NCBI GenBank assembly: GCA_041600695.1
Contig: JBFIJP010000003.1
Coordinates: forward strand, 1 to 34,707
Direction of reading: 5' to 3'
DNA from: Thermoplasmatota archaeon
GTDB lineage: Archaea > Thermoplasmatota > E2 > JACPAO01 > JAHFTW01
DNA length: 34,707 bases
Shown here: positions 1-28,457 of the stretch, piece by piece
Numbering within the stretch: the stretch's first letter is position 1
Layout: each line of letters starts with the position of its first letter
Notes under the pieces: model-generated
What the model was told of the DNA's origin: nothing
Database searches by the model: none
Seen by the model: only the letters and a program-made list of their open reading frames with translations
Position numbers and translations under genes: made by a program

Positions 1-188
1 CCCGGCTACTGGGCCTAGGCAGGGGGCGAACGATGAACAACGGGTGACCTTCGGCAGGACTTGGGTGCTAGCCATTTTTGGTAAGCAAGAATTGAGCCTT
101 CCCCTCGTGTGCGTCCGGCCACCCGTCGAGGATGTCGCGTGGGAGTTGCGCCTATTGAAGTCTTGGGGTCGGCCGGCCACCACGGTGA

Positions 189-644
189 GCGGCCTCCGTT
201 GACGCTGACACCTGCGCACCCGGCAGCGATTGCTTACGCCGCTTCAATGACAGGGACGTGGTTCTGATGCTTGTGCACCAATCGCATCCCGGATCATCCG
301 TCGCGCGCGCATTTGATCGCGGAGTGAATGCCGTGCAACTCCGGGGGTACGCGGCAATGCAGACCAAGAACGTCGATGCCACCCGAGAGTACCGGCTGGG
401 AGCCCACGAATTGGGTCATCTCTTTGCCGGCGACCACGACCTAGCTGGCGCCGCCAGCTATGGGTGGTGCTACGGACTCTACGTTCAACGGTACACGCTG
501 ATGAAAGACTCGGCCCTCTGCCGGGTCAACCAATTCACCGGCTGGGCCAACAGCTACAACATCCATCACAATGCCTACCGAATTCGATGGTGCGTGGATT
601 ACAACGGATTCTGTGACGAAGTAAATGTACCCGATATTGACTAG
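189..644 (+). pseudogene. 5'-truncated paralogue (catalytic C-terminal part) of the metzincin peptidase at 1491-2753
   Basis: Translation aligns by eye with the C-terminus of 1491-2753 (RDVVL..MQTxNVDATREYxLxAHExGH..YTxMKDSAxCRVN..RIRWCVDxNxxCDExxVPD). There is an in-frame TGA at 186-188, and no signal peptide or prodomain upstream. Zinc motif is HELGHLFAGDHD. Confidence 0.75.
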
Positions 645-652
645 CGTGCATC

Positions 653-1057
653 ATGTCCACGACTACCCGCCGCCCATGGTCGCTAGCGGCATTCCTCGTG
701 CTAGCGAATGCCGTGGCCGGTTGCCTAACCGATTGTCCATTCCCCCAGCCTTGGGAGATCAAGATCCACAACTCTTCGGCCGAAGACGCAACCGTTCACA
801 TGCTTATCGAGGATATGGCCGGCAACGTCGTGCTGAACGCGACTATCTTCGTGGAAGGCAGCACTGGCCCGCACCATCCCTCGGGCCAGGCGACCGCGCC
901 GGCTACGACGTTCGAAGACGGCAATCGGTACCGCATCTTCGTTGAGGCCTCGGATGGGCGGGCGGATGCAGGGGCGTTTTACGCGGACTGCAGCGAGGGG
1001 CGCCCAGACATCATCCTCGCCGATGACCGCATCAGCATCGGCTACGACGCCGTGTGA
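653..1057 (+). CDS. small lipoprotein of unknown function, paralogue of 2766-3161
   Basis: Signal peptide with lipobox-like AVAGC; shares DCxFPQPWEI and ADCSxGxPxIxxxDDxISIGYxxV with 2766-3161. Confidence 0.8.
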   Translation: MSTTTRRPWSLAAFLVLANAVAGCLTDCPFPQPWEIKIHNSSAEDATVHMLIEDMAGNVVLNATIFVEGSTGPHHPSGQATAPATTFEDGNRYRIFVEASDGRADAGAFYADCSEGRPDIILADDRISIGYDAV

Positions 1058-1094
1058 CGCGGTGCCTGGCGCCGGAGCCCGCCGGGATTCGCGT

Positions 1095-1363
1095 CTAGGC
1101 AGCCGCGGCCGTGTCCCGGGAAGCCTTCGCGCTGCGAGCCCGCCGCTCTTCCCGACTCGGCACCTTCACGTCCCGCACGAGCCCGAGAGCCCGCAGGACG
1201 ACGAGGATGTACCGTCCGATGTCGAATTGGTACCAGCGGTGTCCAAGGTAGGCGCTGTTGGGGAAGGCGTGGTGGTTGTTGTGCCAGCCTTCGCCGAATC
1301 CCAGGACGCCGAAGATGGCGTTGTTGCGGGCCACGTCCGGGGAGGCGTAGGGGCGGGTGCCCC
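1095..1363 (-). pseudogene. orphan 3' fragment of the acyl-CoA desaturase gene (third His box and C-terminus)
   Basis: GTRPY...GEGWHNNHHAFP...SREERRARSAKA is nearly identical to the end of 3210-4154; homology stops abruptly at about 1363. Confidence 0.85.
1126..1363. repeat. ~240 bp direct repeat, copy 1 (copy 2 at 3241-3478)
   Basis: Near-identical DNA; about 1135-1241 matches 3250-3356 exactly by eye, with mismatches increasing towards the ends. Confidence 0.9.
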
Positions 1364-1458
1364 TTGGTGAGTCCAGCCCTTCCACCAGGCAAGGCCGGTG
1401 GGTGAACAGGTGTGCGTATCAGCTCCAACTAGAACAGGCCTCGGCGTGTTCGCCGCCA

Positions 1459-1477
1459 TTCAATACCGGGGGGGGGG
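1459..1477 (+). promoter_or_regulatory. putative TATA-like box (TTCAATA) followed by a G10 tract upstream of the peptidase
   Basis: TTCAATA at 1459-1465 lies 25 nt before ATG 1491; ten G at 1468-1477. Confidence 0.5.
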
Positions 1478-1490
1478 CGTTCCACACTTC

Positions 1491-2753
1491 ATGGCCACTC
1501 TGCGCCAAATCCTTCCGCTAGCCATCGCGTGTCTCCTGTCTCTGTCCCCGTTGCTGGGCGTCGCCGGCCAAGGCGACGAACCCCCGGACTACTTCGACTC
1601 AACGGCGGCGCAAATGCAAAAACCAGATGTTCCAATGCCAGATCCCACGTATGTGGCAGCTTGGCTGGACCCCGCATCCATCCTAGCCGACGCCTTGGAT
1701 GGCGAACTAACGTTCGCCATCGGAAGCAATTCCTTCACATTTTCAGCCACCGAAGTCGAGCTATTTGCCCCCGGATGGCGTGCCATCAGGACCGACGACG
1801 AAGGTACGATCGTTGAAGAAACAGACGAGGCTGACATCCATCCCTTCAGACTGACGACCTCGGATTTTCCAGACCTGATTTCATCACTGACCGTCGGCCC
1901 CGGATTCATCGGAGCCAACCTTTCTCCCAACCCGTGCACTACTCTTTCTCTAGAAACCGTCGAATCCGCCGAAGAGCTAGTCAAGGTCAACGTCGCGATT
2001 TGGGGCCCGCCGGTGGAAACCCCTTGCGTGGACGCACTGCCCGCCAGACCGGGACAATCGGGTGGAGCGGCTGGCCAAGGCGCGGCCGATCCGCCGGACG
2101 GACCTTCGGCGGCATCGCATACGATCAGCTATATCGAGATCTTGATAGATGGCGACCACAATTTCTACGAAGCCCATCCTTCGACCTGGGCCAGCTACCA
2201 GGTTAATTTGATCAACACGGCTCAGAACCAGATTTACAGCCCCGACTTGAACGTTCAGTTCTTGATTACGTACCAGTTCGTCGGGCGTGCCATTGGCACC
2301 GACACTGCGTGCGGCGCACGAGAACAGACCGCGGACTTCTGGAGGCAATATCCCGGCTATCATCGTGATGTGGTTCTTTTGCTCGCAGACCAGCCCTTTA
2401 CGACCGGATCGGTAGGTTGCGCTTGGTTCCGCGGGGTCGCAGACCCAATCCAAGACGCGTATGCCGTCATGCAAACATGGAACGTGGACGCCACACGTGA
2501 GTACAAGCTTGCAGCCCACGAGGTTGGACACGTTTTCGGCGGGCATCATGACGCAGCCATATCTGTCGGAGCTGGCTGGTGCTACCTCGGATATTGGACC
2601 CACTACACAATCATGAAGGATTCCGCCACCTGTCGCGTCAACTCGTTTAGCGGATGGACGTACAGCTACAACGACTACCACAACTCCCACCGCATTCGTT
2701 GGTGCGTAGACTTCAACTACCTTTGCGACGAGTTCCACGTGCCAGACCTCTAG
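1491..2753 (+). CDS. secreted zinc metallopeptidase, metzincin clan (M12B/reprolysin-like)
   Basis: Signal peptide (MATLRQILPLAIACLLSLSPLLGVAG), acidic prodomain, IEILIDGD strand, HEVGHVFGGHHD = HExxHxxGxxHD, Met-turn TIMK. Confidence 0.85.
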   Translation: MATLRQILPLAIACLLSLSPLLGVAGQGDEPPDYFDSTAAQMQKPDVPMPDPTYVAAWLDPASILADALDGELTFAIGSNSFTFSATEVELFAPGWRAIRTDDEGTIVEETDEADIHPFRLTTSDFPDLISSLTVGPGFIGANLSPNPCTTLSLETVESAEELVKVNVAIWGPPVETPCVDALPARPGQSGGAAGQGAADPPDGPSAASHTISYIEILIDGDHNFYEAHPSTWASYQVNLINTAQNQIYSPDLNVQFLITYQFVGRAIGTDTACGAREQTADFWRQYPGYHRDVVLLLADQPFTTGSVGCAWFRGVADPIQDAYAVMQTWNVDATREYKLAAHEVGHVFGGHHDAAISVGAGWCYLGYWTHYTIMKDSATCRVNSFSGWTYSYNDYHNSHRIRWCVDFNYLCDEFHVPDL

Positions 2754-2765
2754 GGACGTCTCCGT

Positions 2766-3161
2766 ATGAAACCCAGAAGTGCATGCCCCGTGATCGTCGC
2801 CTTGCTCCTGGCGGCCACCCCGGGGTGCTTTGAGGACTGTGCGTTCCCGCAGCCATGGGAGATTCGGATCACGAACCTCGTTCCCCAGGAGCAAGTGCTG
2901 TCTTTGCAAGCGACCGACTCGACAGGCACAATTGTGTGGATAGCTAACGTGACTGTTCCCGCCCAACGTTTCGACCCGGGGCCACCGGGTAAGGCCTCGG
3001 CGCCGCCACTGCACCTCGAGGAAGGCGAGCGGTACATTCTGACGGTCAGTGCGTCCGGCGGACGGACGGCCGAAGGGCCGATGCGGGCGGATTGCAGCCA
3101 CGGCCTGCCCGGCATCACGGTATCCGACGATGCCATTTCGATCGGCTATAATGTGGTCTAA
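2766..3161 (+). CDS. small lipoprotein of unknown function
   Basis: Lipobox-like LLAATPGC; starts 12 nt after the peptidase stop; paralogue of 653-1057. Confidence 0.8.
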   Translation: MKPRSACPVIVALLLAATPGCFEDCAFPQPWEIRITNLVPQEQVLSLQATDSTGTIVWIANVTVPAQRFDPGPPGKASAPPLHLEEGERYILTVSASGGRTAEGPMRADCSHGLPGITVSDDAISIGYNVV

Positions 3162-3209
3162 CCCGCACGGTGGCGAGATGTGGTTGACCCCAGGAATTCG
3201 CGCGGGCGG

Positions 3210-4154
3210 CTAGCCGCTCGCCGTCGTCCCGGCGGCAGCTTTCGCGCTCCGAGCCCGCCGCTCTTCCCGACTCGGCACCTTCACGTCCCGCACGAGCCCG
3301 AGAGCCCGCAGGACGACGAGGATGTACCGTCCGATGTCGAATTGGTACCAGCGGTGGCCGAGGTAGGCGCTGTTGGGGAAGGCGTGGTGGTTGTTGTGCC
3401 AGCCTTCGCCGAAGCCCAGGACGCCGAAGATGACGTTGTTGCGAGCCACATCGGGGCTCCGGTAGGGGCGGGTGCCCCAGGTGTGGCAGATGCTGTTGAT
3501 ACTCCACGTGACGTGGTGCATGACGAAGACGCGCACGACGCCGCCCCAGAGGACCGCCTGCCAGAAGGCACCCCAGGTGCCCATGACTGCCAGCCCGATG
3601 AGGCCGGGCACAATGAACGAGAGGACGATCCACAGCAGTTGGGTGCGTTCGAGGAATCGGACGATGGGGTCCTGCATGAGCTTGGCGTGGGCGGGGCCCT
3701 TGTGGACCAGGTTGCCCTTGGGCAGCCAGCCGAAGTGGGCGTGCCAGAACCCTTCGAGGGGGCTGTGGGGGTCGCCGGGCTGGTCGGCTCGGGCGTGGTG
3801 GCGTCGGTGGGTGGCGGCCCAGGCGGCGGGTCCGCCTTGTAGCGCGGTGACGCCCATCAGGAGCAGGACGAAGCGGACGGGTGCGCTGGCTTTGTAGGCG
3901 CCGTGGGCGAGGAGCCGGTGGAAGCCCAGGGTGATGCCGATGCCTGCGGTGGCCCACAGAGAGAAGAGCAAACCTAGATCGAGCCAGCTGACGTGACTGC
4001 CCCAAAGGCGGACGATGGCGAAGATGGTCAGGGCGAAGGGGATCATGGCCGCCAGGGTGACGGTGATCTTGTGGCCGAGGTGACGGCCGATGAAGGGGTA
4101 CGCGGCGTCCACGGCGTCAGGCCGGGCGTCGTTCGCGTTGGTTGATTCAGACAT
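3210..4154 (-). CDS. delta-9 type acyl-CoA/acyl-lipid fatty acid desaturase
   Basis: Three His boxes (GFHRLLAH, WAATHRRHH, GEGWHNNHH), DPHSP motif, INSICH, transmembrane segments. Confidence 0.93.
   Translation of the reverse strand: MSESTNANDARPDAVDAAYPFIGRHLGHKITVTLAAMIPFALTIFAIVRLWGSHVSWLDLGLLFSLWATAGIGITLGFHRLLAHGAYKASAPVRFVLLLMGVTALQGGPAAWAATHRRHHARADQPGDPHSPLEGFWHAHFGWLPKGNLVHKGPAHAKLMQDPIVRFLERTQLLWIVLSFIVPGLIGLAVMGTWGAFWQAVLWGGVVRVFVMHHVTWSINSICHTWGTRPYRSPDVARNNVIFGVLGFGEGWHNNHHAFPNSAYLGHRWYQFDIGRYILVVLRALGLVRDVKVPSREERRARSAKAAAGTTASG
3241..3478. repeat. ~240 bp direct repeat, copy 2 (inside the intact desaturase 3' end)
   Basis: Matches 1126-1363. Confidence 0.9.
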
Positions 4155-4826: not shown

Positions 4827-6362
4827 GTGACTGGGTGGACGGTCGTTCAGGCGCTCGGTTGTGTGGTCGCCATGGTGGCATCCGGCAGCCTCGGAGCCCC
4901 TGGGCCGGGGCCCTCTGCCGCCTCCCCGCCTGCACGCGCGACCGCCGCCGGAGAAGCGGAGGTCAGCCCGATGCTGGCTTTTTCGTCCTACCTCGGCGGG
5001 TCGGACCGTGAGGAGTTCTTCAAGGGCCTCGCCGTCGACGCCGAGGGCTACATTTACCTCGCCGGCGGCACCCACAGCACCGACTACCCCGTGGCTGCCG
5101 CGTTGCAGGAGGAGCACGCGAGCCCCGGGGTCGAACAGGACATCGTCATCACCAAGCTCACCCCTGACGGCCAGTCAATCGTGTATTCCACCTACCTGGG
5201 GGGCAGCGACCGCGACTATGCCGTCGACATTGACGTTGACGCGGCTGGCAACGTCTACATCGTCGGCAAGACCGACTCGGCTGACTTTCCGGCCGTACGC
5301 CCCATCCAGGATGGGCTTGGCAGCACCGACAGCCCGGATGCTTTCTACGCCAAGCTCGACGCGTCCGGCGAATTTCTTCACTTCTCCTCCATCCTGGGCG
5401 GCGACGAGTACGACATCCTGACCGGCGTCGCCGCCGACAGCCGGGGTGGAATGACCTTCGTTGGCAAGACCCGCTCAACGGACCTTCCCACCACCCGGCG
5501 GGTCCTGCAACCCGAACTCGGCGGAGCTACCGACGCGTTTGCCGGACGCGTCCTGCGCGACGGCACCCTGCGCTACCTGACCTACCTGGGAGGGTCGGGG
5601 TACGACTACGCCCAGGCAATCGACCTGGACGCGCGCGGGCACGCCGTCATCGTGGGGCCCACCAGCAGCCGCGATTTTCCCGTCGTGGCCGGTGCATTCC
5701 AGACCGAAATCCCCACGGCGGGAGGGCCGGCCCAGGACTCCGGTTTCATTACCCACCTGCACCGCAGCGGACGCAGCCTGCTGGCCAGCACCTACTACGG
5801 CGGCAGCAGTGAGGACACGCTCCGGGGCGTCGACATCGGCGCCGATGGCAGCATCTACGTCGTCGGGGACACCAACTCGACCGACCTGAGCGTCCCCGGC
5901 GGCCAGGCCCCGGACGGCGACCGCGACGCCTTCGTAGCCCGGTTCGACGCGCAGGGATCGCTCGCATGGGCTACGGCGTTTGGCGGCAGCGGCCGCGAGT
6001 TCGGCCACGACCTGGCCGTCGGCCCGGCCGGGGAGGTGTACGTCATCGGGCAGACGCGGTCCACGGACCTGCCCGTCGCCAACGCCCCCCAAGGGGCACC
6101 CGCGGGCCTCGACGATGCTTTCCTGGTCGCCCTCGCCGCAGACGGGGCCGTGCAGTGGGCAACCTACCTGGGCGGGTCAGGAATGGACGAGGGCCGGGAG
6201 ATCGCGGCCAACCCGTCGGGGTCAAGCCTGCACGTTGCCGGATTGACGCGGTCCACAGACTTTCCCCTCGCCGACCCCCTCCTGGACCCCTACAGCGGCG
6301 TGCGCCGACCCCGCAACGTCGGCGACGCCTTCGTCGCCAGCCTAGATGTCCACACACCCTAG
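4827..6362 (+). CDS. secreted SBBP (beta-propeller repeat) protein
   Basis: Repeated (Y/F)STYLGGSxxD...GxxYxxGxTxSxDFP units; hydrophobic N-terminus; start uncertain. Confidence 0.88.
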   Translation: MTGWTVVQALGCVVAMVASGSLGAPGPGPSAASPPARATAAGEAEVSPMLAFSSYLGGSDREEFFKGLAVDAEGYIYLAGGTHSTDYPVAAALQEEHASPGVEQDIVITKLTPDGQSIVYSTYLGGSDRDYAVDIDVDAAGNVYIVGKTDSADFPAVRPIQDGLGSTDSPDAFYAKLDASGEFLHFSSILGGDEYDILTGVAADSRGGMTFVGKTRSTDLPTTRRVLQPELGGATDAFAGRVLRDGTLRYLTYLGGSGYDYAQAIDLDARGHAVIVGPTSSRDFPVVAGAFQTEIPTAGGPAQDSGFITHLHRSGRSLLASTYYGGSSEDTLRGVDIGADGSIYVVGDTNSTDLSVPGGQAPDGDRDAFVARFDAQGSLAWATAFGGSGREFGHDLAVGPAGEVYVIGQTRSTDLPVANAPQGAPAGLDDAFLVALAADGAVQWATYLGGSGMDEGREIAANPSGSSLHVAGLTRSTDFPLADPLLDPYSGVRRPRNVGDAFVASLDVHTP

Positions 6363-6485
6363 CCTGGCACCACCGAGCTCGTGAACCGGCGCGTCGGCTG
6401 ACCTCGCGCGGCGCAGCCGACCACCATTGAGCAGGACCTTGGCGACCGGCAACGCCTTTGAAGAGGGACTACCGGTAGGGGCCAC

Positions 6486-8585
6486 GTGGATCGATTGCAG
6501 CGGCTCGCCGTGGGGCTTGTGCTCCTGATGGCGCCCGTCATCCTGGCCGTTCCCGGCGAGGCACATTTGCCGGCGACGCCCGGCCTGGCGCCAACCGGGG
6601 CCGTCACCTTCGAACCGAATCGCGGCCAGGCGCCCGATGACGTTCTCTTTGTTGCCCGCACGCCCAACGGAATCGCACATGTTCTGGCGTCCGGCATCCG
6701 GCTGGGGCTGGAGGGCGAGCCCCTCAACATCCGATTCGACAACGGCCACGCCCGCAGCGCAGTTGGCGAAGACGCCACAGCTACGCTGGTCCATTCGTTG
6801 CGGGGCCAGGACCCGGACGCCTGGACCCACCTGCGCGTCTTCCAATCGGTCCTCTTGGAGGACGTGTACTCGGGCATCGACGTTCGACTGCGCGACGGGG
6901 GCGGACGCATCGAATACGACTTCATTGTGGCCCCTGGCGCGGACCCGGACGAGGCCGTTGTGCGCTTCGGCCCCAACGCAGCGCTCCGCCTGAGCGCCGG
7001 CAGCGGCGACCTGCAAATCCATGTCGCCGGCGGCACCGTCACCCAGGCGGCCCCCGTGGCCTACCAAGAAGATGCCAACGGCCAACTCGCCTTGGTGGAC
7101 GCAGCGTTCAAGCTATTGGGCAGCCAGCGCGTGGGCGTCCAGTTGGGCCCGCACGACCCGGCCAAGACGCTGGTCATCGATCCCGTGGTCGACTTCTCAA
7201 GCTACCTCGGGGGCTCCATCCGGGAAGATTTCTACAAGGGCCTCGCCGTCGACGACGACGGCTACATCTACATGGTGGGCGGCACCCGGAGTTCCGACTT
7301 TCCCACCTCACAGCCGCTCCAGCCGGACCACGGCAGCCCGGAGAGCGCGCTGGATGTGTTCATCACGAAGTTGACCCCGGACGGAAGCAGCGTCGTCTAC
7401 TCGACGTTCCTGGGTGGCAACGACCGGGATTACGCCGTCGATGTCGACATCGATGCGGCGGGCAATGTTTACGTCGTGGGCAAAACCGCCTCCCCTGACT
7501 TCCCGCTCGTGGCACCGACACAGGGCGCCATTGGGAGCCTCGACTGGCCCGATGGTTTCTACGCCAAGCTGGATGCATCCGGGGCGTTCCTGCACTACTC
7601 GTCGTACCTGGGCGGCAGCGACTACGACATCGTGACCGGCGTCGCGGCCGAGTCCCGGGGCGGCATGAGCATCGTGGGCAAGACCCGATCGACCGACGTT
7701 GCAACCACGGCGCGGGCGATGCAGCGCGACATGGCGGGGCATACGGATGCCCTCGCCGCCCGGGTCACCGCCGACGGCGAGCTTCGGTTCCTGACATATC
7801 TGGGGGGCAACGGCTATGACTATGCCCAGGCCGTGGTGCTGGACAAACGGGGACACATGATCCTCGTGGGCCCCAGCGGCAGCCCTGATTTCCCTGTCAG
7901 CCAGGGCGCGTTCCAGGAGGAATTGTCCCAAGACGGCGAGGTCCGCCAGGATTCCGGCTTCATCACGCGCCTCCACCGATCGGGAAGGGGAATCCTACAG
8001 AGTACCTTCTTCGGGGGAACCGATACGGATTTCCTGCGCGGCGTGGACCTTGACGCCCGTGGAAACATCTACGTTGTCGGTGACACCAATTCCACCGACC
8101 TGCCCGTTCTGGGCGGCCCCCAGCAGGCCCTCGCGGGCAGCCGCGATGCGTTTGCCGCGCGCCTGACGCGAAACCTGCAACCCGTATGGTCCACGTATCT
8201 GGGCGGCTCCGAAGCCGACTTCGGGTACGACCTTGCCGTCGGCGCCAACGGCCTGGTTCACATCGTTGGCCAGACCCGGTCCGTGGACCTGCCCGTGGTT
8301 GCGGCCGCGCAGCGGCAGCCGGCGGGCCTCGACGAAGCCTTCGTGGGCACCCTTGACACCCAGTCATCCCGCATCAGGTGGCTGACCTACGTCGGTGGCT
8401 CCGGCATTGACGAAGGCAAGGAGGTTGTCTTGGCACCAGACGGACGGCTGCATGTCGCAGGACTCACCCGCTCCACTGACTTCCCGCTGGTTTCGGCCCT
8501 CATGGACCCCTACCGGGATGACGCCCGGGCGCGCAACCAGGGCGATGCGTTCCTCGCCACCTTCGACCTTCAAAGGGAAGGCTAG
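6486..8585 (+). CDS. secreted SBBP repeat protein with the N-terminal domain typical of this family (FEPNRGQ...YSGID...IEYDFIVAPGADP...LVIDP)
   Basis: Signal peptide, family N-terminal motifs, then SBBP repeats collinear with 4827-6362. Confidence 0.9.
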   Translation: MDRLQRLAVGLVLLMAPVILAVPGEAHLPATPGLAPTGAVTFEPNRGQAPDDVLFVARTPNGIAHVLASGIRLGLEGEPLNIRFDNGHARSAVGEDATATLVHSLRGQDPDAWTHLRVFQSVLLEDVYSGIDVRLRDGGGRIEYDFIVAPGADPDEAVVRFGPNAALRLSAGSGDLQIHVAGGTVTQAAPVAYQEDANGQLALVDAAFKLLGSQRVGVQLGPHDPAKTLVIDPVVDFSSYLGGSIREDFYKGLAVDDDGYIYMVGGTRSSDFPTSQPLQPDHGSPESALDVFITKLTPDGSSVVYSTFLGGNDRDYAVDVDIDAAGNVYVVGKTASPDFPLVAPTQGAIGSLDWPDGFYAKLDASGAFLHYSSYLGGSDYDIVTGVAAESRGGMSIVGKTRSTDVATTARAMQRDMAGHTDALAARVTADGELRFLTYLGGNGYDYAQAVVLDKRGHMILVGPSGSPDFPVSQGAFQEELSQDGEVRQDSGFITRLHRSGRGILQSTFFGGTDTDFLRGVDLDARGNIYVVGDTNSTDLPVLGGPQQALAGSRDAFAARLTRNLQPVWSTYLGGSEADFGYDLAVGANGLVHIVGQTRSVDLPVVAAAQRQPAGLDEAFVGTLDTQSSRIRWLTYVGGSGIDEGKEVVLAPDGRLHVAGLTRSTDFPLVSALMDPYRDDARARNQGDAFLATFDLQREG

Positions 8586-8635
8586 AGACGCGGGGTGCGA
8601 CGGCCACCGGGGTACCGGGGGCCGCCGCGTTTCTA
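8583..8635. terminator. imperfect inverted repeat between convergent genes
   Basis: TAGAGACGCGG...CCGCGTTTCTA outer stem with inner GGCCACCGG/CCGGGGGCC stem; includes both stop codons. Confidence 0.5.
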
Positions 8636-11497
8636 CTTCCGCTGCGCCTTGTTGCTTCCGCTCATGGCGTAACGGGCCCGGAACTCCATGTTGGTGATGG
8701 GGCTCTGCCGGTCCGGTGCCGGCGGACCCGTTGGCCCCGTGGTGCCTGCCGGGATCGTTGGCCCTTCGCTGACGAAGATGGGTCTCGATGAAGCCACGAC
8801 ACGCGGAAGCGTCGGCTCCTCGGGAGGCGAATCGATGGATTTCGTCCCGGCTGCGCCACCGCCGCCGCCACCGCCACCGCCGCCGCCACCGCCGCCGCCG
8901 CCGCCACCGCCGCCGCCGCCGCCACCGCCACCGCCGCCGCCACCGCCACCGCCGCCCCCTCCAGCTGCCGCGAGCACATCGATCACTTGGCTGGTCGTGT
9001 TGGTGGCGCCCTCGTTGTCCGTTACCCGGAGCTGGATGGTGTAGGATCCTGCTGACGGGAACTCGACCGTCAGCCGATCGGCACCCGGCCGGTCGATGAC
9101 GGTCACGTTCGATGCGTCCGAGGTGTTCCCGATGAGGAAGCGCCACTGGAATCGGGTCACGTTGCCATCCAGGTCGTGGCTTGCGGAGGCATTCAAGTGG
9201 CACGTGAGCGCGAGGCATTCCACATCGAACCTTGCCACTGGCGCCGCATTCCCGGTTTCGTTGGCATCCCCTCCGTCTCCGCCGTCTCCGCCGTCTCCGC
9301 CGTCCCCTCCGTCTCCGCCGTCTCCGTCAGCACAGGGGCCTTCGGTGTCGCCGTGCCGGTAGTGACCACCTGCGGAAGGCGCCGGAACCGTCACAGTTTG
9401 CTGGCGGTGGCTGCCGGGTCGGTGGCAAAGGGTCACGTCGCCGTCGTCACTGCCATCTCCGCCGTCGCCTCCGTCACCTCCGTCTCCGCCGTCACCTCCG
9501 TCTCCGCCGTCACCTCCGTCTCCGCCGTCACCTCCGTCTCCGCCGTCGCCTTCGGGGCAGGGTCCCTCGGTGTCGCCGTGCCCGTAATGGCCGCCAGCGG
9601 CGGGCCCGGGCACGGTCATGGTTTGCTCCTGGTCGGTGCCGGGTCGGTGGCAAAGGGTCACGTCGCCGTCGTCACTGCCGTCTCCGCCGTCGCCACCGTC
9701 TCCGCCGTCGCCTCCGTCGCCACCGTCTCCGCCGTCGCCTCCGTCGCCACCGTCTCCGTCGTCGCCCCCGTCACTGCCGTCTCCGCCGTCACTGCCATCT
9801 CCGCCGTCTCCGCCGTCTCCGCCGTCACTGCCGTTTCCGCCGTCACTGCCATCTCCGCCGTCACCGCCGTCGCCTTCGGGGCAGGGTCCCTCGGTGTCGC
9901 CGTGGCCGTAATGGCCGCCAGCGGCGGGCCCGGGCACGATCATGGTTTGCTCCTGGTCGGTGCCGGGTCGGTGGCAAAGGGTCACGTCGCCGCCGTCGCC
10001 GCCGTCACCGCCGTCGCCTTCGGGGCAGGGTCCCTCGGTGTCGCCGTGGCCGTAATGGCCGCTAGCGGCGGGCCCGGGTACGGTCATGGTTTGTTCCTGG
10101 TCGGTGCCAGGCTTGTGGCAAACCGTCACTTCGCCGTCGTCACTGCCGTCTCCGCCGTCTCCGCCGTCGCCTCCCCCGCCACCGTCTCCGTCGTCGCCGT
10201 CTCCGTCGTCGCCGCCGTCACTGCCATCTCCGCCGTCGCCTCCCCCGCCACCGTCTCCGTCGTCGCCGCCGTCACTGCCATCTCCGCCGTCGCCTCCGTC
10301 ACTGCCGTCTCCGCCGTCGCCTCCGTCACTGCCATCTCCGCCGTCACCTCCGTCTCCGCCGTCACCTCCGTCTCCGCCGTCACCTCCGTCTCCGCCACCA
10401 GCTCCGCCACCACCGCTTCCTGCGTCTCCATCACCCCCGGGGACGGCGCACGGGCCCTCGGCATCACCATGTCCAAGGTGACCCGGCACCGCCTGCGCTG
10501 GCACATCCATCGTGGATTCAGCCGGCGTCCCCGGCTTGTGACAAATCGTGATCCAGACAACACCTCGCCCACCTTGGCCCTCAAAAAAGACACCTTCCAG
10601 ACCGTCTTCAACCCAACCGCCAGAGCCTACAGGGTCACCTACATTCGCTGCCCCCCAGTGCCCCCCTGCCAGCGCCAGGGCCATTGCGCCGGTCGCCAGG
10701 GACGCAGGCGCACGGGGGCCTGCCAGCGGGGAAACGTTTGTTGGAACCAGGGCCAGCAGAGGGGCCAGCAGGGCCGTTGCAAGCAAGATGACGATGCCTA
10801 CGGCCGCAGCCCTCTGAACGGGCTCTTCCCACGCATGCCTCTGGCGGGGGCGCCACCTGCTTTGCCAGACACCATGCGCGATGACGCTTCGGTCCAGGCG
10901 TTGCCTAGCCTCGGCCTGCTCCTGTGCCCGGGCCTCCTCGGCGTCCAGGGGAGGCAAGCCCCACTGGGTCGCGTCCAGGTGGCCTGCCCGCACCAGCTTT
11001 TCCACATGGTGCCGGAACTCGAAGCGGGACATGCCGAGCGCTTGAGCCAGCCACTTCTCCTCGCTGGGATCGACGCCGTTCCAGGCTGGCGTTGCCGCAT
11101 TCTGCGCCGCCAGTTGGGGATGACCGCGCCATTGGGCGGCGTCCAGAAGGCCTTCCTTGACGAAGTCGTCGATGATTGCGCGCAGTTCGCGGGTCGGGAT
11201 GCCCAGAAGCAGTGCCAAGTCCTGTTGCTCCTCGGCATCCAGTGGCGCGTCCAACTCTTCGTCGCCGTCGGCGGCGCCGTCGCTTGCGGGGTTCTTCAGG
11301 AGGGCTCGCCATTCGTGAGGATCCAGCAGGGCGTCACGCCAGACGCCAGCACCGGGGGTGCCTTCGACGGCGCCAACCTCCCGGCCTCCCGACGCGGAAG
11401 GCCGGGGGGGCCGTACAATGCCCCGGGACCGGGCTGCAAGCTCAAACGAAACGGACGCCAGCACTCGACGGCCACGGCGCCAATCATCCTGCGGCAC
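8633..11497 (-). CDS. large membrane-anchored surface protein: two HTH-like repeats, TM helix, five CH(K/R)PG..GHxxHGD..GPC modules, GGD linkers, PKD domain, poly-Gly
   Basis: Long ORF with a clear modular structure; PKD signature APVARF...LNASASHDLDGNVTRFQWRF...GSYTIQLRVTDNEGAT; start codon uncertain. Confidence 0.8.
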   Translation of the reverse strand: MPQDDWRRGRRVLASVSFELAARSRGIVRPPRPSASGGREVGAVEGTPGAGVWRDALLDPHEWRALLKNPASDGAADGDEELDAPLDAEEQQDLALLLGIPTRELRAIIDDFVKEGLLDAAQWRGHPQLAAQNAATPAWNGVDPSEEKWLAQALGMSRFEFRHHVEKLVRAGHLDATQWGLPPLDAEEARAQEQAEARQRLDRSVIAHGVWQSRWRPRQRHAWEEPVQRAAAVGIVILLATALLAPLLALVPTNVSPLAGPRAPASLATGAMALALAGGHWGAANVGDPVGSGGWVEDGLEGVFFEGQGGRGVVWITICHKPGTPAESTMDVPAQAVPGHLGHGDAEGPCAVPGGDGDAGSGGGGAGGGDGGDGGDGGDGGDGGDGGDGSDGGDGGDGSDGGDGGDGSDGGDDGDGGGGGDGGDGSDGGDDGDGDDGDGGGGGDGGDGGDGSDDGEVTVCHKPGTDQEQTMTVPGPAASGHYGHGDTEGPCPEGDGGDGGDGGDVTLCHRPGTDQEQTMIVPGPAAGGHYGHGDTEGPCPEGDGGDGGDGSDGGNGSDGGDGGDGGDGSDGGDGSDGGDDGDGGDGGDGGDGGDGGDGGDGGDGGDGSDDGDVTLCHRPGTDQEQTMTVPGPAAGGHYGHGDTEGPCPEGDGGDGGDGGDGGDGGDGGDGGDGGDGGDGGDGSDDGDVTLCHRPGSHRQQTVTVPAPSAGGHYRHGDTEGPCADGDGGDGGDGGDGGDGGDGGDANETGNAAPVARFDVECLALTCHLNASASHDLDGNVTRFQWRFLIGNTSDASNVTVIDRPGADRLTVEFPSAGSYTIQLRVTDNEGATNTTSQVIDVLAAAGGGGGGGGGGGGGGGGGGGGGGGGGGGGGGGGGGGGAAGTKSIDSPPEEPTLPRVVASSRPIFVSEGPTIPAGTTGPTGPPAPDRQSPITNMEFRARYAMSGSNKAQRK
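8855..8962 (-). repeat. 36-codon poly-glycine tract (GGC/GGT trinucleotide repeat)
   Basis: (gcc/acc)n on the + strand, 108 nt, in frame. Confidence 0.9.
9268..10410 (-). repeat. 9-bp-unit coding tandem repeats (GGD/GSD)n interleaved with ~105 bp Cys/His module repeats
   Basis: Runs of ccgtctccg/ccgtcacct variants; near-identical modules at about 9330-9437, 9557-9662, 9881-9985 and 10025-10130, plus a diverged one at about 10449-10553. Confidence 0.9.
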
Positions 11498-26540: not shown

Positions 26541-26621
26541 GCGGCCAGCCAGGCTGACCGGGCCCGCGGCGCCCCGCCGAGGACAGCCGTTAAACGAGCC
26601 CTCCGAGTGGGCGGCCCAGCC

Positions 26622-28457
26622 ATGCTGGACATCAAGCTCTTGCGCGAAACGCCCGAAGTGGTCAAAGCCGACCTGCGCAAGCGCGGGTGGGATCCAGCCC
26701 TGGTAGATCACTTCATCAAATGGGACAACACCTGGCGTGCCGCATCCACAGAAATCAATGAAGCCCGGGCGGAGAGGAACGCCGTGGCCAAGGCTTATGG
26801 TCCTTTAATGGGCCGTTTCAAAAAGTTTGACAACTTGGCAACCGCTCTTCAGGCGAACATATCCGTCGTGAATAGCTACCTCCAATTCAACAAGGAAGCC
26901 GGGCCCGTGGCGAGATGGCTAATGGCAAACCGAAAGCGACGTGCGGCGATGCTGGCTGCCGTGGATTTCTGCGTTGCATTCGCCCGCGTCGGTGAAGCCG
27001 CGAAGGCCTACGATGAGCAGTTTCACCAGTTCTTCCAGGCGGTGGGAAAGGACCGCGGCGTGGCCTTGCAGCGCTCGGACGACGGTTTGTTTGCTAGCCT
27101 AGACGAAAAACTTGAGCACGCAGAAACGCTGCGCCTGAATTGCGTCGACTATGCGTCAATCAAAAAACCGACCGAGGAACAAATAAATCGTCACATACAA
27201 AATATCCTTTCCAGTCCGCTGTGGCCTGCCGACGATCTTTGGACGCTCATTTCAGAAATCCGTGCTCGCCACGATGCGCCCCACGACCTTGCAAGTTCCA
27301 CGACTGCGCGTGTAAAGGACCTGGATAGAACACTTGCAGAGTCGCAGCGTGAGTGGTGGGCCATCCGGCGACGCCTTCCAAACATCATGCACGACTCTGT
27401 GCCTGTGGGGAAGGATGATCGTGACAATGTGCCGATTAAGTTCGAAGGAACCGCCCGCGTGCACGATTTCCCGGCGGTCAGCCACGTGGACCTCCTCGAA
27501 AGCCTTGACGTGGCGGATCTCGAACGCGCTGCCCGCGCCGCAGGGGCGCGGTTCGTCTACCTGAAGGGCGACTTGGTTCTCCTGGCCAAGGCGCTGGAGT
27601 TCTTCGCGCTCACCAAGCTGACCGGCAAGGGTTTCACCCCCGTAGAACCGCCGTTCATGCTGCGCCGGGAGGCCATCGAGGGAGCCGTGGACCTGTCCGA
27701 CTTCGAGGACGTGATCTACAAGGTCGAGGCCGGGGCGGGGGCTGGAAAAGACGATGCCCCGGAGCTGTTCCTGATCGCCACCAGCGAGCACCCTCTGGCG
27801 GCGCTGCACATGGGCGAGATCTTCGAGGACGCCCAGCTTCCCCTGCGCTACGCTGGCGTTAGCCCGTGCTTCCGCAAGGAGGCCGGCGCCCACGGCAAAG
27901 ACACCAAGGGCATCTTTCGGGTCCACCAGTTCAGCAAGGTCGAGCAATTCGTTTACTGTACGGCTGAGGACTCCTGGGCCATCCACGAGGAACTCATTGC
28001 CAACGCCGAGGAGATTTACCGGGAACTCGGCATTCCGTACCGCGTCGTCAACATCTGTACCGGCGATCTGGGCACCGTGGCGGCCAAGAAATACGACATC
28101 GAGGCGTGGATGCCGGTGCAGGGCGCCTACCGCGAGGTGGTGAGTTGCTCCAACTGCACCGACTACCAGGCTCGGCGCTACAATACCCGCCACCGCAAAG
28201 CCCCGGGCGAGCCCACATCGTTCGTTCACACCCTCAACTCGACGGCGGTCGCGGTCCAGCGCACACTCGTGGCCATCCTGGAGAACTTCCAGCAAGCCGA
28301 TGGTTCGGTGATGATTCCCGAGCCGCTGCGCCAGTACCTGGGTGGCCGTGACCGGATCCGTCCCGCCGTGGCCCCCCGGGCCGCTGAGCCCGACGAGGCG
28401 GCCGGTGAGCCGGAAGCAGTTGCTCAAGCCTCCAAGCCCGCACCGCCTTCATCCTAG
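26622..28457 (+). CDS. serS: serine--tRNA ligase (canonical type) with a large in-frame insertion in the N-terminal coiled-coil arm
   Basis: MLDIKLLRE, LPNIMHDSVPVG, LIATSEHPL, motif 2 FRKEAGAHGKDTKGIFRVHQFSKVE, EVVSCSNCTDYQARR, motif 3 TLNSTAVAVQRT. Confidence 0.96.
   Translation: MLDIKLLRETPEVVKADLRKRGWDPALVDHFIKWDNTWRAASTEINEARAERNAVAKAYGPLMGRFKKFDNLATALQANISVVNSYLQFNKEAGPVARWLMANRKRRAAMLAAVDFCVAFARVGEAAKAYDEQFHQFFQAVGKDRGVALQRSDDGLFASLDEKLEHAETLRLNCVDYASIKKPTEEQINRHIQNILSSPLWPADDLWTLISEIRARHDAPHDLASSTTARVKDLDRTLAESQREWWAIRRRLPNIMHDSVPVGKDDRDNVPIKFEGTARVHDFPAVSHVDLLESLDVADLERAARAAGARFVYLKGDLVLLAKALEFFALTKLTGKGFTPVEPPFMLRREAIEGAVDLSDFEDVIYKVEAGAGAGKDDAPELFLIATSEHPLAALHMGEIFEDAQLPLRYAGVSPCFRKEAGAHGKDTKGIFRVHQFSKVEQFVYCTAEDSWAIHEELIANAEEIYRELGIPYRVVNICTGDLGTVAAKKYDIEAWMPVQGAYREVVSCSNCTDYQARRYNTRHRKAPGEPTSFVHTLNSTAVAVQRTLVAILENFQQADGSVMIPEPLRQYLGGRDRIRPAVAPRAAEPDEAAGEPEAVAQASKPAPPSS

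Follow-up and report, generated by a model that had tools for sequence, protein, structure and literature searches.

How do two strongly diverged copies of one gene pair come to stand in a row, each closed by nearly the same piece of an unrelated gene? This question is raised by a locus at the left end of a 34,707-nucleotide (nt) stretch of archaeal DNA (the window), which is the whole of contig C3 of the Thermoplasmatota metagenome-assembled genome (MAG) G000 (589 contigs, 86% complete). Here a candidate metzincin peptidase gene and a small lipoprotein gene, which together we call a cassette, are followed by the convergent 3' end of a fatty-acid desaturase gene, and the whole unit occurs twice. 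The distal cassette (peptidase 1, lipoprotein 1) ends in a desaturase fragment, and the proximal, inner one (peptidase 2, lipoprotein 2) adjoins the full desaturase gene. With modest confidence, we regard as the probable answer that recombination displaced and stacked two anciently diverged alleles of a peptidase-lipoprotein operon between the conserved desaturase gene and a variable flank. The comparison draws on G001 and G002, the second and third species of the genus of G000, and on four marine metagenomes of a single study (runs X1 to X4) that hold this stretch; what the runs contribute is assembled (Logan) contigs, raw reads not being among the data. Positions of all features are collected in Table 1.

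Uneven divergence between the two units

The two units share a direct repeat of 273 nt (1091-1363 and 3206-3478, at a spacing of 2115 nt), whose copies are 93% identical over 263 nt (BLAST, E 6e-106) with the differences scattered. Along the unit, divergence is far from uniform: sliding identity reaches 0.97-1.0 in the desaturase core (~1139-1330), and lies at 0.5-0.73 in the peptidase part and 0.37-0.62 in the lipoprotein part. At the protein level, the peptidases are 57-58% identical over 127-129 amino acids (aa) and the lipoproteins 42% over 119 aa, and the desaturase fragment is 92% identical over 87 aa to residues 227-313 of the full desaturase. The proportion of synonymous differences (pS) is 0.84 for the peptidase and 0.67 for the lipoprotein, both saturated, and 0.116-0.136 for the desaturase fragment. 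The 58% aa similarity between the peptidase copies goes with no conserved nucleotide stretch; near-identical DNA is found only in the neighbouring desaturase gene. By these measures, the peptidase and lipoprotein copies are anciently diverged.

A first-pass annotation of this DNA had described the repeated unit, the strong divergence of its peptidase and lipoprotein alleles, the reduction of the distal peptidase to its catalytic C-terminus beside an intact lipoprotein gene, and a non-uniform divergence that speaks against a single local duplication. All of this is borne out, the last point by the sliding-window comparison itself and by the pS values. It had also called the desaturase piece almost identical between the copies, which holds for the core; the last ~15 codons and the 3' tail, as well as 12 nt at 1335-1346 beside the junction discussed below, are strongly diverged.

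Two aspects of the desaturase repeat bear on the origin of the tandem. Each cassette carries its own desaturase C-terminal tail, which suggests that the cassettes are alleles, each of which once adjoined a desaturase gene; and since divergence is non-uniform across the unit, a simple local duplication is excluded. In addition, codons 9-78 of the fragment differ from the full gene of G000 by six synonymous changes and one non-synonymous change, where neutral decay predicts ~75% non-synonymous (binomial P 0.0012). This 6:1 excess suggests that the divergence between fragment and full gene built up in a working desaturase of another lineage, and not through duplication in place followed by decay.

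We propose the following course of events. DNA of a relative with the order peptidase 2, lipoprotein 2, desaturase would have recombined into a genome that carried peptidase 1, lipoprotein 1 and desaturase. One crossover would have been homologous, in the resident desaturase gene or beyond it to its right, and the other end of the incoming DNA would have joined illegitimately inside the resident desaturase at 1363/1364, in an event of homology-facilitated illegitimate recombination or some unequal exchange equivalent to it. Together with 269 nt of the old desaturase 3' end, the older cassette would have been pushed outward; peptidase 1 would later have been truncated, and lipoprotein 1 would have stayed intact. 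Capture of a second allele is favored over duplication in place because of the cassette-specific desaturase tails, the saturated divergence of the cassettes, the 6:1 synonymous excess and the absence of the cassette from G002. On this account the founding junction at 1363/1364 would be the illegitimate join, and the homologous crossover of that event may lie farther right.

The tandem could instead descend from an ancient duplication in place, after which the peptidase and lipoprotein genes diverged fast and gene conversion kept the desaturase fragment similar. Synonymous divergence (dS) between the desaturase copies within a genome is 0.13-0.15 in G000 and 0.06 in G001, as against 0.19-0.24 between orthologous copies across the genomes. 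This pattern suggests concerted evolution or repeated recombination, and it is what gene conversion would give; moreover, the junction is common to both genomes, so that it arose once. However, with cassette pS saturated (0.84 and 0.67) against a genus-level desaturase dS of 0.33, the duplication would be older than the genus, yet no cassette adjoins the desaturase gene in G002 or the other family genomes. The cassette-specific tails and the 6:1 excess in G000 likewise point to separate functional histories, and we hold duplication in place to be improbable.

The junction and the integrity of the assembly

Homology to the full desaturase gene ends abruptly at 1363/1364, with collinear desaturase to the right. 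Such a structure raises the concern of an assembly artefact, namely a strain chimera, the assembler having concatenated two allelic haplotypes of a single locus through the conserved desaturase 3' end. The setting gives some grounds for it: the distal unit is terminal on its MAG contig, where there is a graph overlap of 141 nt (window 1-141 equals C149 1-141 reversed), and the sample holds several haplotypes. Against it, the junction sits at the edge of the repeat and not inside it, joining desaturase interior to unique sequence, and the repeat copies have no exact run in common longer than ~108 nt (as read from the alignment), which falls short of the 141-nt contig overlap.

The junction also recurs outside G000. 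Contig C154 of G001 has it, extending 236 nt into the desaturase side, and so do contigs that were assembled separately from three of the four runs. The X4 contig (1302-3287) has 62 nt on the desaturase side and carries G001-specific variants, which argues further against a chimera; the contigs of X1 (1334-1476) and X3 (1334-2810) cross with 30 nt on that side, one letter below the 31-letter rule for a bridging contig, and have the distal-specific letters. For X2 no bridging contig across 1363/1364 is listed, and a contig of this run covers 1-1164 without mismatch. The depths of the distal and proximal cassettes match in X1 (16 and 16.6), X2 (6.41 and 7.3) and X3 (5.68 and 6.33). Since another MAG of the genus and contigs of individual runs show the junction too, a chimera at 1363/1364 is unlikely, and we consider it extremely improbable that the tandem is an artefact of assembly. 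Support across the junction, which the first-pass annotation had put forward as a check, therefore exists at the level of contigs, its independence being limited in that G001 may stem from the same campaign as the four runs.

As a separate observation on the bin, G000 amounts to 4.23 Mb in its 589 contigs and the two congeners, which are about as complete, to 3.0-3.2 Mb. Although its reported contamination is 0.08%, the bin may include additional strain or accessory sequence.

Exchange of the inner cassette between species

Between G000 and contig C154 of G001, the block 1339-3254 is identical at 1913 of 1916 positions, the differences lying at 1468 (an indel), 2673 and 3249; at 11% divergence, ~211 would be expected. 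The block takes in the 25 nt of desaturase fragment next to the junction, the junction itself, both genes of the inner cassette, a spacer and the final ~15 desaturase codons. In the flanking regions, identity between the two genomes is 92.4% for the distal desaturase fragment (1128-1338), 89.0% for the rest of the desaturase (3255-4154), 83.6% for the spacer, 87.7% for HxlR and 84.3% for the SBBP gene. Set against flanks of 84-92%, the near-identity of the block indicates that the inner cassette was exchanged between the two species very recently, or that a third supplied it to both. Both crossovers fall within the paired desaturase 3' copies, which now act as homology arms.

The path of this exchange can be narrowed from diagnostic sites, such as 1342-1346, where the distal copy of G000 is G001-like and the proximal copy G002-like. 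A single Campbell-type crossover of a circular cassette fits the site patterns in neither donor/recipient direction, and to explain them, either gene conversion at a later stage or a double crossover into a tandem already in place appears to be needed. The first-pass annotation had proposed that a cassette from a relative was captured by recombination in the desaturase 3' end. For the exchange just described, recombination inside the repeats is visible; for the founding stacking event, the desaturase 3' end would be a conjectural anchor, and the join at 1363/1364 appears illegitimate.

Direct repeats of a gene's 3' end around an insert are also the classical footprint of gene-end integration. 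One could thus read the 2115-nt unit as a site-specifically integrated element with the desaturase 3' end as its attachment (att) site, mobilised in trans by an integrase encoded elsewhere, and its movement between species as a unit would agree with this. Yet neither an integrase or recombinase (Pfam, among the scanned open reading frames (ORFs), that is, the cassette genes and scanned neighbours) nor a tRNA was found in or beside the unit, so that the locus is integrase-free to this extent, as the first-pass annotation had it. The repeats, at 269 nt and only 93% identity with spread differences, are unlike att cores, and the two ends of the exchanged block, 1339 and 3254, lie at unequal depths in their repeats, which is what homologous crossovers would produce. 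Site-specific integration is, in our judgement, very improbable.

One of the only three differences in the 1.9-kb block falls in a G tract upstream of peptidase 2 (1468-1477), which has 10 G in G000 and 9 in G001 and run X4. The tract could be prone to slippage, which would alter the spacing from promoter to start, or the frame if an upstream start is used.

Cassette distribution and the variable outer side

The desaturase gene is a constant of the family, being present in 32 of 32 family genomes searched, and the cassette beside it is not. The peptidase was found in four of 41 relatives, G000 included: it lies at this locus in G001, and the matches in G002 and G007 are weak and on other contigs. 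In the phylum, 2 of 301 genomes have it. Near the desaturase gene, no match to the cassette was found in the other 22 family genomes sampled (the weak G007 match is on another contig). The locus of G002 runs from SBBP through HxlR to the desaturase, then to a pyridine-nucleotide-disulphide oxidoreductase and a methyltransferase, without a cassette. At 18 loci of G002 and other genera inspected by eye, the convergent neighbour of the desaturase is that methyltransferase in six and a secreted protein of 337-480 aa in three; the remaining nine have another convergent neighbour or a flank that is too short. Small desaturase fragments in G045 and G044 were considered as displaced fragments and set aside, as they are contigs of 551-564 nt or contig ends.

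Searches beyond the family were equally sparse in returns. The G001 contig was all that a scan of genome contigs gave; word-based homologue searches came back with the window's own proteins and a single variant of lipoprotein 1 and nothing else, and a scan of metagenome contigs with the peptidase C-terminus gave 65 pattern matches and no relative. To the left there is no further unit: the window begins at a contig end, and C149 holds the PIN gene and unrelated genes; nor does tblastn find another cassette copy in the 589 contigs of G000. 

The outer boundary of the array is variable. In G000 the peptidase 1 remnant abuts the PIN-gene flank at ~190-245. Contig C255 of G001 matches window positions 26-190 at 92% and is divergent beyond, so that synteny between the two genomes stops at ~190; in the runs, the boundary is spanned with 0 mismatches by an X1 contig (1-282) and the X2 contig 1-1164. 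Lipoprotein 1 of G001 is found at the end of another contig (C172, 1439-1624, corresponding to window 653-843), where its mature part is 98% identical in nucleotides to window 718-843, its signal peptide is completely different and no peptidase remnant stands upstream. Because the gene differs in the signal peptide and yet matches from the lipobox on, a recombination breakpoint at the lipobox codons is indicated. Upstream on C172 are a 154-aa membrane protein and a lipoprotein, with the methyltransferase neighbourhood farther upstream, by coordinates.

A third haplotype, in run X4, covers 264-1172 at 95% identity. The 69 nt upstream of 264 read as peptidase in this haplotype (GYPNYHRDVV; compare YPGYHRDVV in peptidase 2), so that a longer, possibly full, gene of the peptidase 1 type is present in the population. 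A joint 1346->3462 in X4 was considered as a single-cassette haplotype and rejected, being explained by a G001-type desaturase that carries distal-type letters at 1342-1346.

The synteny break at window ~190 shows a further feature in G001. On C255 (264-683 and ~1040-1190), a diverged PIN allele has left a C-terminal fragment of 51 aa (59% identity, E 4e-17) downstream of an intact PIN (VapC-like) gene, with other genes beyond; this fragment is a second displaced 3' remnant in the genus.

The peptidase and the lipoprotein

Peptidase 2 is probably a metzincin of the adamalysin/reprolysin-like type (M12B). It matches Reprolysin_5 with E 1.3e-16 and 61.9 bits (Pfam cut-off 27 bits), its matches to Reprolysin_5, 3, 4 and 2 are all above the cut-offs, and against the PDB its profile finds the catalytic domains of snake-venom and ADAM metalloproteinases (best E 4.7e-10). 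The zinc motif HEVGHVFGGHHD, accompanied by YTIMKDS, fits HExxHxxGxxH(D). In the peptidase 1 remnant the motif is HELGHLFAGDHD, where Ala takes the place of the Gly and the next residue is Gly, and the Met-turn region is YTLMKDS. Across seven family members the motif H, E, H and H are invariant and the Gly is shifted by one position in most, and the T and M of YTIMKDS/YTLMKDS are invariant in the seven-sequence alignment; the AlphaFold model of the full peptidase is poor (mean pLDDT 44).

The likely start of peptidase 2 is the ATG at 1491, since the 1-nt indel in G001 breaks the upstream part of the ORF. The protein has a signal peptide and an N-terminal domain of ~200 aa, and its N-terminal 208 aa have no Pfam match. 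The remnant is 58% identical to residues 323-451 of the full peptidase ORF, is without a signal peptide and the N-terminal half of the catalytic domain, and scores 23.2 bits for Reprolysin_5, below the cut-off. Thus, like M12B adamalysins, the family has the HExxHxxGxxHD motif and a conserved Met; unlike them, it is a rare prokaryotic family with an N-terminal domain of its own, with 104 representatives at E <= 1e-3 and 11 at E <= 1e-10 among 1.84 billion. G000 also holds a distant paralogue of the peptidase family in a 448-aa ORF elsewhere (C289:1204-1725, E 4e-14 to the family profile).

Each peptidase gene and its adjacent small lipoprotein gene, on the same strand, presumably form one co-transcribed operon; lipoprotein 1 starts 8 nt past the stop of the remnant and lipoprotein 2 starts 12 nt past that of peptidase 2. 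No known family, including any known inhibitor family, was recognised for the lipoproteins by Pfam, homologue searches or PADLOC. Lipoprotein 2 is modelled as an eight-stranded all-beta domain (mean pLDDT 77), whose best PDB fold matches are the PepT2 extracellular domain, PUD-1/2, TssJ and transthyretin (Z 8-9); its protein-atlas matches score 0.79-0.83, all below 0.9, and serve as leads only.

Binding between lipoprotein 2, in its mature form, and the catalytic domain of peptidase 2 is supported by a model of their complex. The model's ipSAE score is 0.83, against 0.00 for the best of three controls, a mark that 51 of 78 solved complexes and 2 of 108 mismatched pairs attain; at least 77% of contacts recur between runs, and the pLDDT of the partner is at least 87. 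In the modelled interface, the C-terminal GYNVV of lipoprotein 2, from a conserved ISIGYxxV tail, lies along the cleft strand TGSVGCAWF (97-105) and the zinc ligands H139 and H145 (numbering of the modelled chain). A tail in this place suggests a product-like block of the active site, and the lipoprotein could be a cognate inhibitor that shields the producer's own surface.

Selection appears to have kept the orphan lipoprotein 1. Three haplotypes of it are known (G000, G001:C172, and P0002 of X4). P0002 differs from the G000 protein at 7 of 134 residues, and applying the 20 listed variants to the gene reproduces it exactly. These comprise 8.2 non-synonymous and 11.8 synonymous differences, or a dN (non-synonymous divergence) of 0.027 and a dS of 0.131; the dN/dS of ~0.2 indicates purifying selection. 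In G001 the peptidase 1 remnant is wholly gone and the mature coding part of lipoprotein 1 is kept. The orphan might be retained as it still protects against the peptidase 1 of neighbours, or for another function of its own.

Comparison with known systems

The nearest parallel to displacement with stacking comes from Vibrio cholerae's type VI secretion system (T6SS) clusters, where orphan immunity arrays arose by sequential displacement of effector-immunity modules, according to Kirchberger et al. 2017 (PMC5361080). There, an incoming two-gene module displaces the older one, the effector being lost or truncated, sometimes with its 3' end left, and the partner staying intact, as seen here; likewise, modules are near-identical to those of other strains and hence horizontally acquired. 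The mechanism proposed there for these arrays and for Rhs loci combines an illegitimate join with a single homologous anchor in a conserved region nearby (PMC5361080). The present locus differs in that the host is an archaeon without T6SS, and the 'effector', a putative toxin, is a Sec-type secreted adamalysin-like peptidase. Moreover, the presumed anchor is a desaturase gene, unrelated and of the housekeeping type, with a 269-nt piece of it in duplicate, and there is one orphan, on the side far from the anchor.

Homology-facilitated illegitimate recombination itself is reportedly known from the work of de Vries and Wackernagel in 2002 and of Prudhomme et al. in 2002 on transformable bacteria. 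It was described from experiments in transformable bacteria and in E. coli conjugation (PMC5361080, PMC3240628). Like those events, ours would have one homologous end and one non-homologous join, with insertion and partial duplication or deletion of resident sequence; unlike them, it is deduced from a footprint in an uncultured archaeon.

A second resemblance is to the orphan modules of Rhs and contact-dependent inhibition (CDI) loci among polymorphic toxin systems (Zhang et al. 2012, PMC3482391), in which a C-terminal catalytic fragment is followed by an intact cognate partner gene beside a full-length diverged paralogue. This anatomy is present in the distal cassette, the complex model having been made for the other allele pair. 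Two features set the locus apart: no conserved N-terminal delivery region is common to fragment and full gene, and the remnant stands upstream of the full gene, with the recombination homology outside the putative toxin gene, unlike polymorphic-toxin orphans, which lie downstream of the main gene.

Inhibitory lipoproteins have a precedent in the KLIKK-peptidase/potempin pairs of Tannerella forsythia, in which linked lipoproteins of 98-132 residues inhibit a secreted peptidase at its active-site cleft and protect the producer's surface, as described by Ksiazek et al. 2022 (PMC9890683). The lipoproteins studied here parallel this design: they have 131-134 aa and a lipobox, are all-beta in the model, are predicted to occupy the cleft and lie beside the peptidase gene. 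They differ from potempins in that the lipoprotein gene lies downstream (reversed order), the host is an archaeon and the predicted contact is made by a C-terminal tail and not by loops. The searches made here found no sequence relation or clear fold relation of the lipoproteins to potempins, and no potempin is among the PDB fold matches listed for lipoprotein 2. A metzincin beside a small beta-protein inhibitor is also familiar from the serralysin-type AprA and its periplasmic inhibitor AprI (Inh), which inserts a terminal segment at the zinc site. AprI uses its N-terminus, is not a lipoprotein and acts on a different metzincin family.

A literature search found no Thermoplasmatota metalloprotease with a lipoprotein inhibitor. 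The locus is best filed as joining two known kinds of system, displacement and orphan arrays formed by one-sided recombination and protease-lipoprotein inhibitor pairs, its new elements being the uncultured archaeal host and the protein families.

Weighing the proposed origin and function

Several points weigh against stacking by recombination and against the functional reading that goes with it. In G001 the distal fragment differs from that genome's own full gene by 3.5 synonymous and 3.5 non-synonymous changes, so that the signature of a functional allele is found in G000 only. The parental single-cassette haplotype (full peptidase 1, lipoprotein 1, full desaturase) was not seen in the genomes and runs examined. 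As no single Campbell-type crossover fits in either direction, double crossover and later gene conversion are both still candidates for the exchange. The population data, from two MAGs and from four runs of one study at contig level, may lack independence. As for function, the fold matches of the lipoprotein are generic beta-sandwiches in a common range (Z 8-9), and interface residues are not significantly more variable between the alleles than the rest, with 8 of 18 against 67 of 111 identical in the peptidase (P 0.30) and 10 of 23 against 37 of 88 in the lipoprotein (P 1.0).

It is tempting to go further and to see here a selected, recurrent system of allele stacking, in which the peptidase attacks the surfaces of competitors, the lipoproteins give immunity and arrays grow by repeated capture. 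In its favor are the predicted tight complex at the active site and the retention of the orphan lipoprotein, under purifying selection, across three haplotypes, in contrast to a peptidase 1 that is truncated in G000 and absent from G001, with different breakpoints. The X4 allele of the peptidase 1 type, which extends at least 69 nt farther upstream than in G000, and the sweep of a cassette across species fit as well, and the process is documented for T6SS effector-immunity modules (PMC5361080). On the other hand, there are two units only, with no array beyond one orphan in two genomes and four runs; the remnant is upstream and not downstream of the active gene, without a homology region inside the peptidase gene; and neither PADLOC nor Pfam recognised a conflict-system domain. 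We regard a selected system of this kind as rather unlikely.

The first-pass annotation had spoken of an integrase-free allele-stacking system resembling orphan toxin-immunity arrays. A dedicated stacking system is not supported by a locus of two units without an integrase, and relatives do not add to it, G002 being without a cassette and the other 22 family genomes sampled giving no match near the desaturase. The likeness to orphan arrays is partial: the predicted complex and the purifying selection on the orphan agree with it, and the upstream position of the remnant and the homology in a neighbouring gene do not.

The furthest-reaching interpretation would be one of conflict between marine Thermoplasmatota strains. 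Secreted adamalysin-like peptidases would attack the envelopes of neighbours, cognate lipoproteins would plug the active site by their C-terminal tail, and polymorphic cassettes would sweep across species via the duplicated desaturase arms and leave orphan immunity lipoproteins behind, making up an archaeal, secretion-system-independent analogue of polymorphic toxin and orphan immunity arrays. This joint claim is speculative, and we think it quite unlikely to hold in full.

If displacement and stacking by recombination did occur as proposed, the locus would be a concrete, datable footprint of cassette displacement and inter-species exchange by plain homologous recombination in an uncultured archaeal lineage; mechanisms of gene flow in such lineages have mostly been deduced indirectly so far. 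The protein pair, if real, would be a new and rare family of protease and lipoprotein partners with a testable mode of inhibition, a C-terminal tail in a metzincin cleft. It would also hint that the logic of orphan immunity arrays, known from contact-dependent weapons of bacteria, may extend to freely secreted archaeal proteases.

Layout of the locus and neighbouring genes

On the sense strand of 1364-3209, the ORF map shows only the two cassette genes. The features of the locus are listed in Table 1.

Table 1. Features at the left end of the window, in order of position.
Feature	Position	Strand	Remarks
Left flank	1-190		Conserved; downstream of the PIN (VapC-like) gene on contig C149
Peptidase 1 remnant	246-644 (ORF 258-644, 128 aa)	+	C-terminal ~130 aa; homology from ~246-252
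Lipoprotein 1	653-1057	+	134 aa, intact; signal peptide, lipobox Cys24; orphan partner
Desaturase 3' fragment	1095-1363 (ORF 1095-1385)	-	269 nt, last ~88 codons and stop; distal repeat copy
Exchanged inner block	1339-3254		99.8% identity with congener G001
Putative illegitimate junction	1363-1364		Desaturase interior fused to the upstream region of peptidase 2
G10 homopolymer	1468-1477	+	14 nt upstream of the likely peptidase 2 start
Peptidase 2, full	1491-2753 (ORF 1398-2753)	+	420 aa from ATG 1491; adamalysin/reprolysin-like
Lipoprotein 2	2766-3161	+	131 aa; signal peptide, lipobox Cys21; predicted partner/inhibitor of peptidase 2
Fatty-acid desaturase, full	3210-4154	-	Convergent with the cassettes; Pfam FA_desaturase, E 2e-18; 3206-3478 is the proximal repeat copy
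HxlR regulator and SBBP beta-propeller proteins	right of 4154

Large secreted or surface proteins adjoin the locus on its right (window 4827-11497), namely two SBBP beta-propeller proteins, one of them with DUF7948, and a 954-aa PKD-domain protein; over this region identity between G000 and G001 is only 70-88%. Farther along, at 26607-28457, an ORF of 616 aa encodes a seryl-tRNA synthetase in which ~300 residues, an unusual length for this enzyme, separate the N-terminal domain (residues 6-71) from the class II core (371-561).

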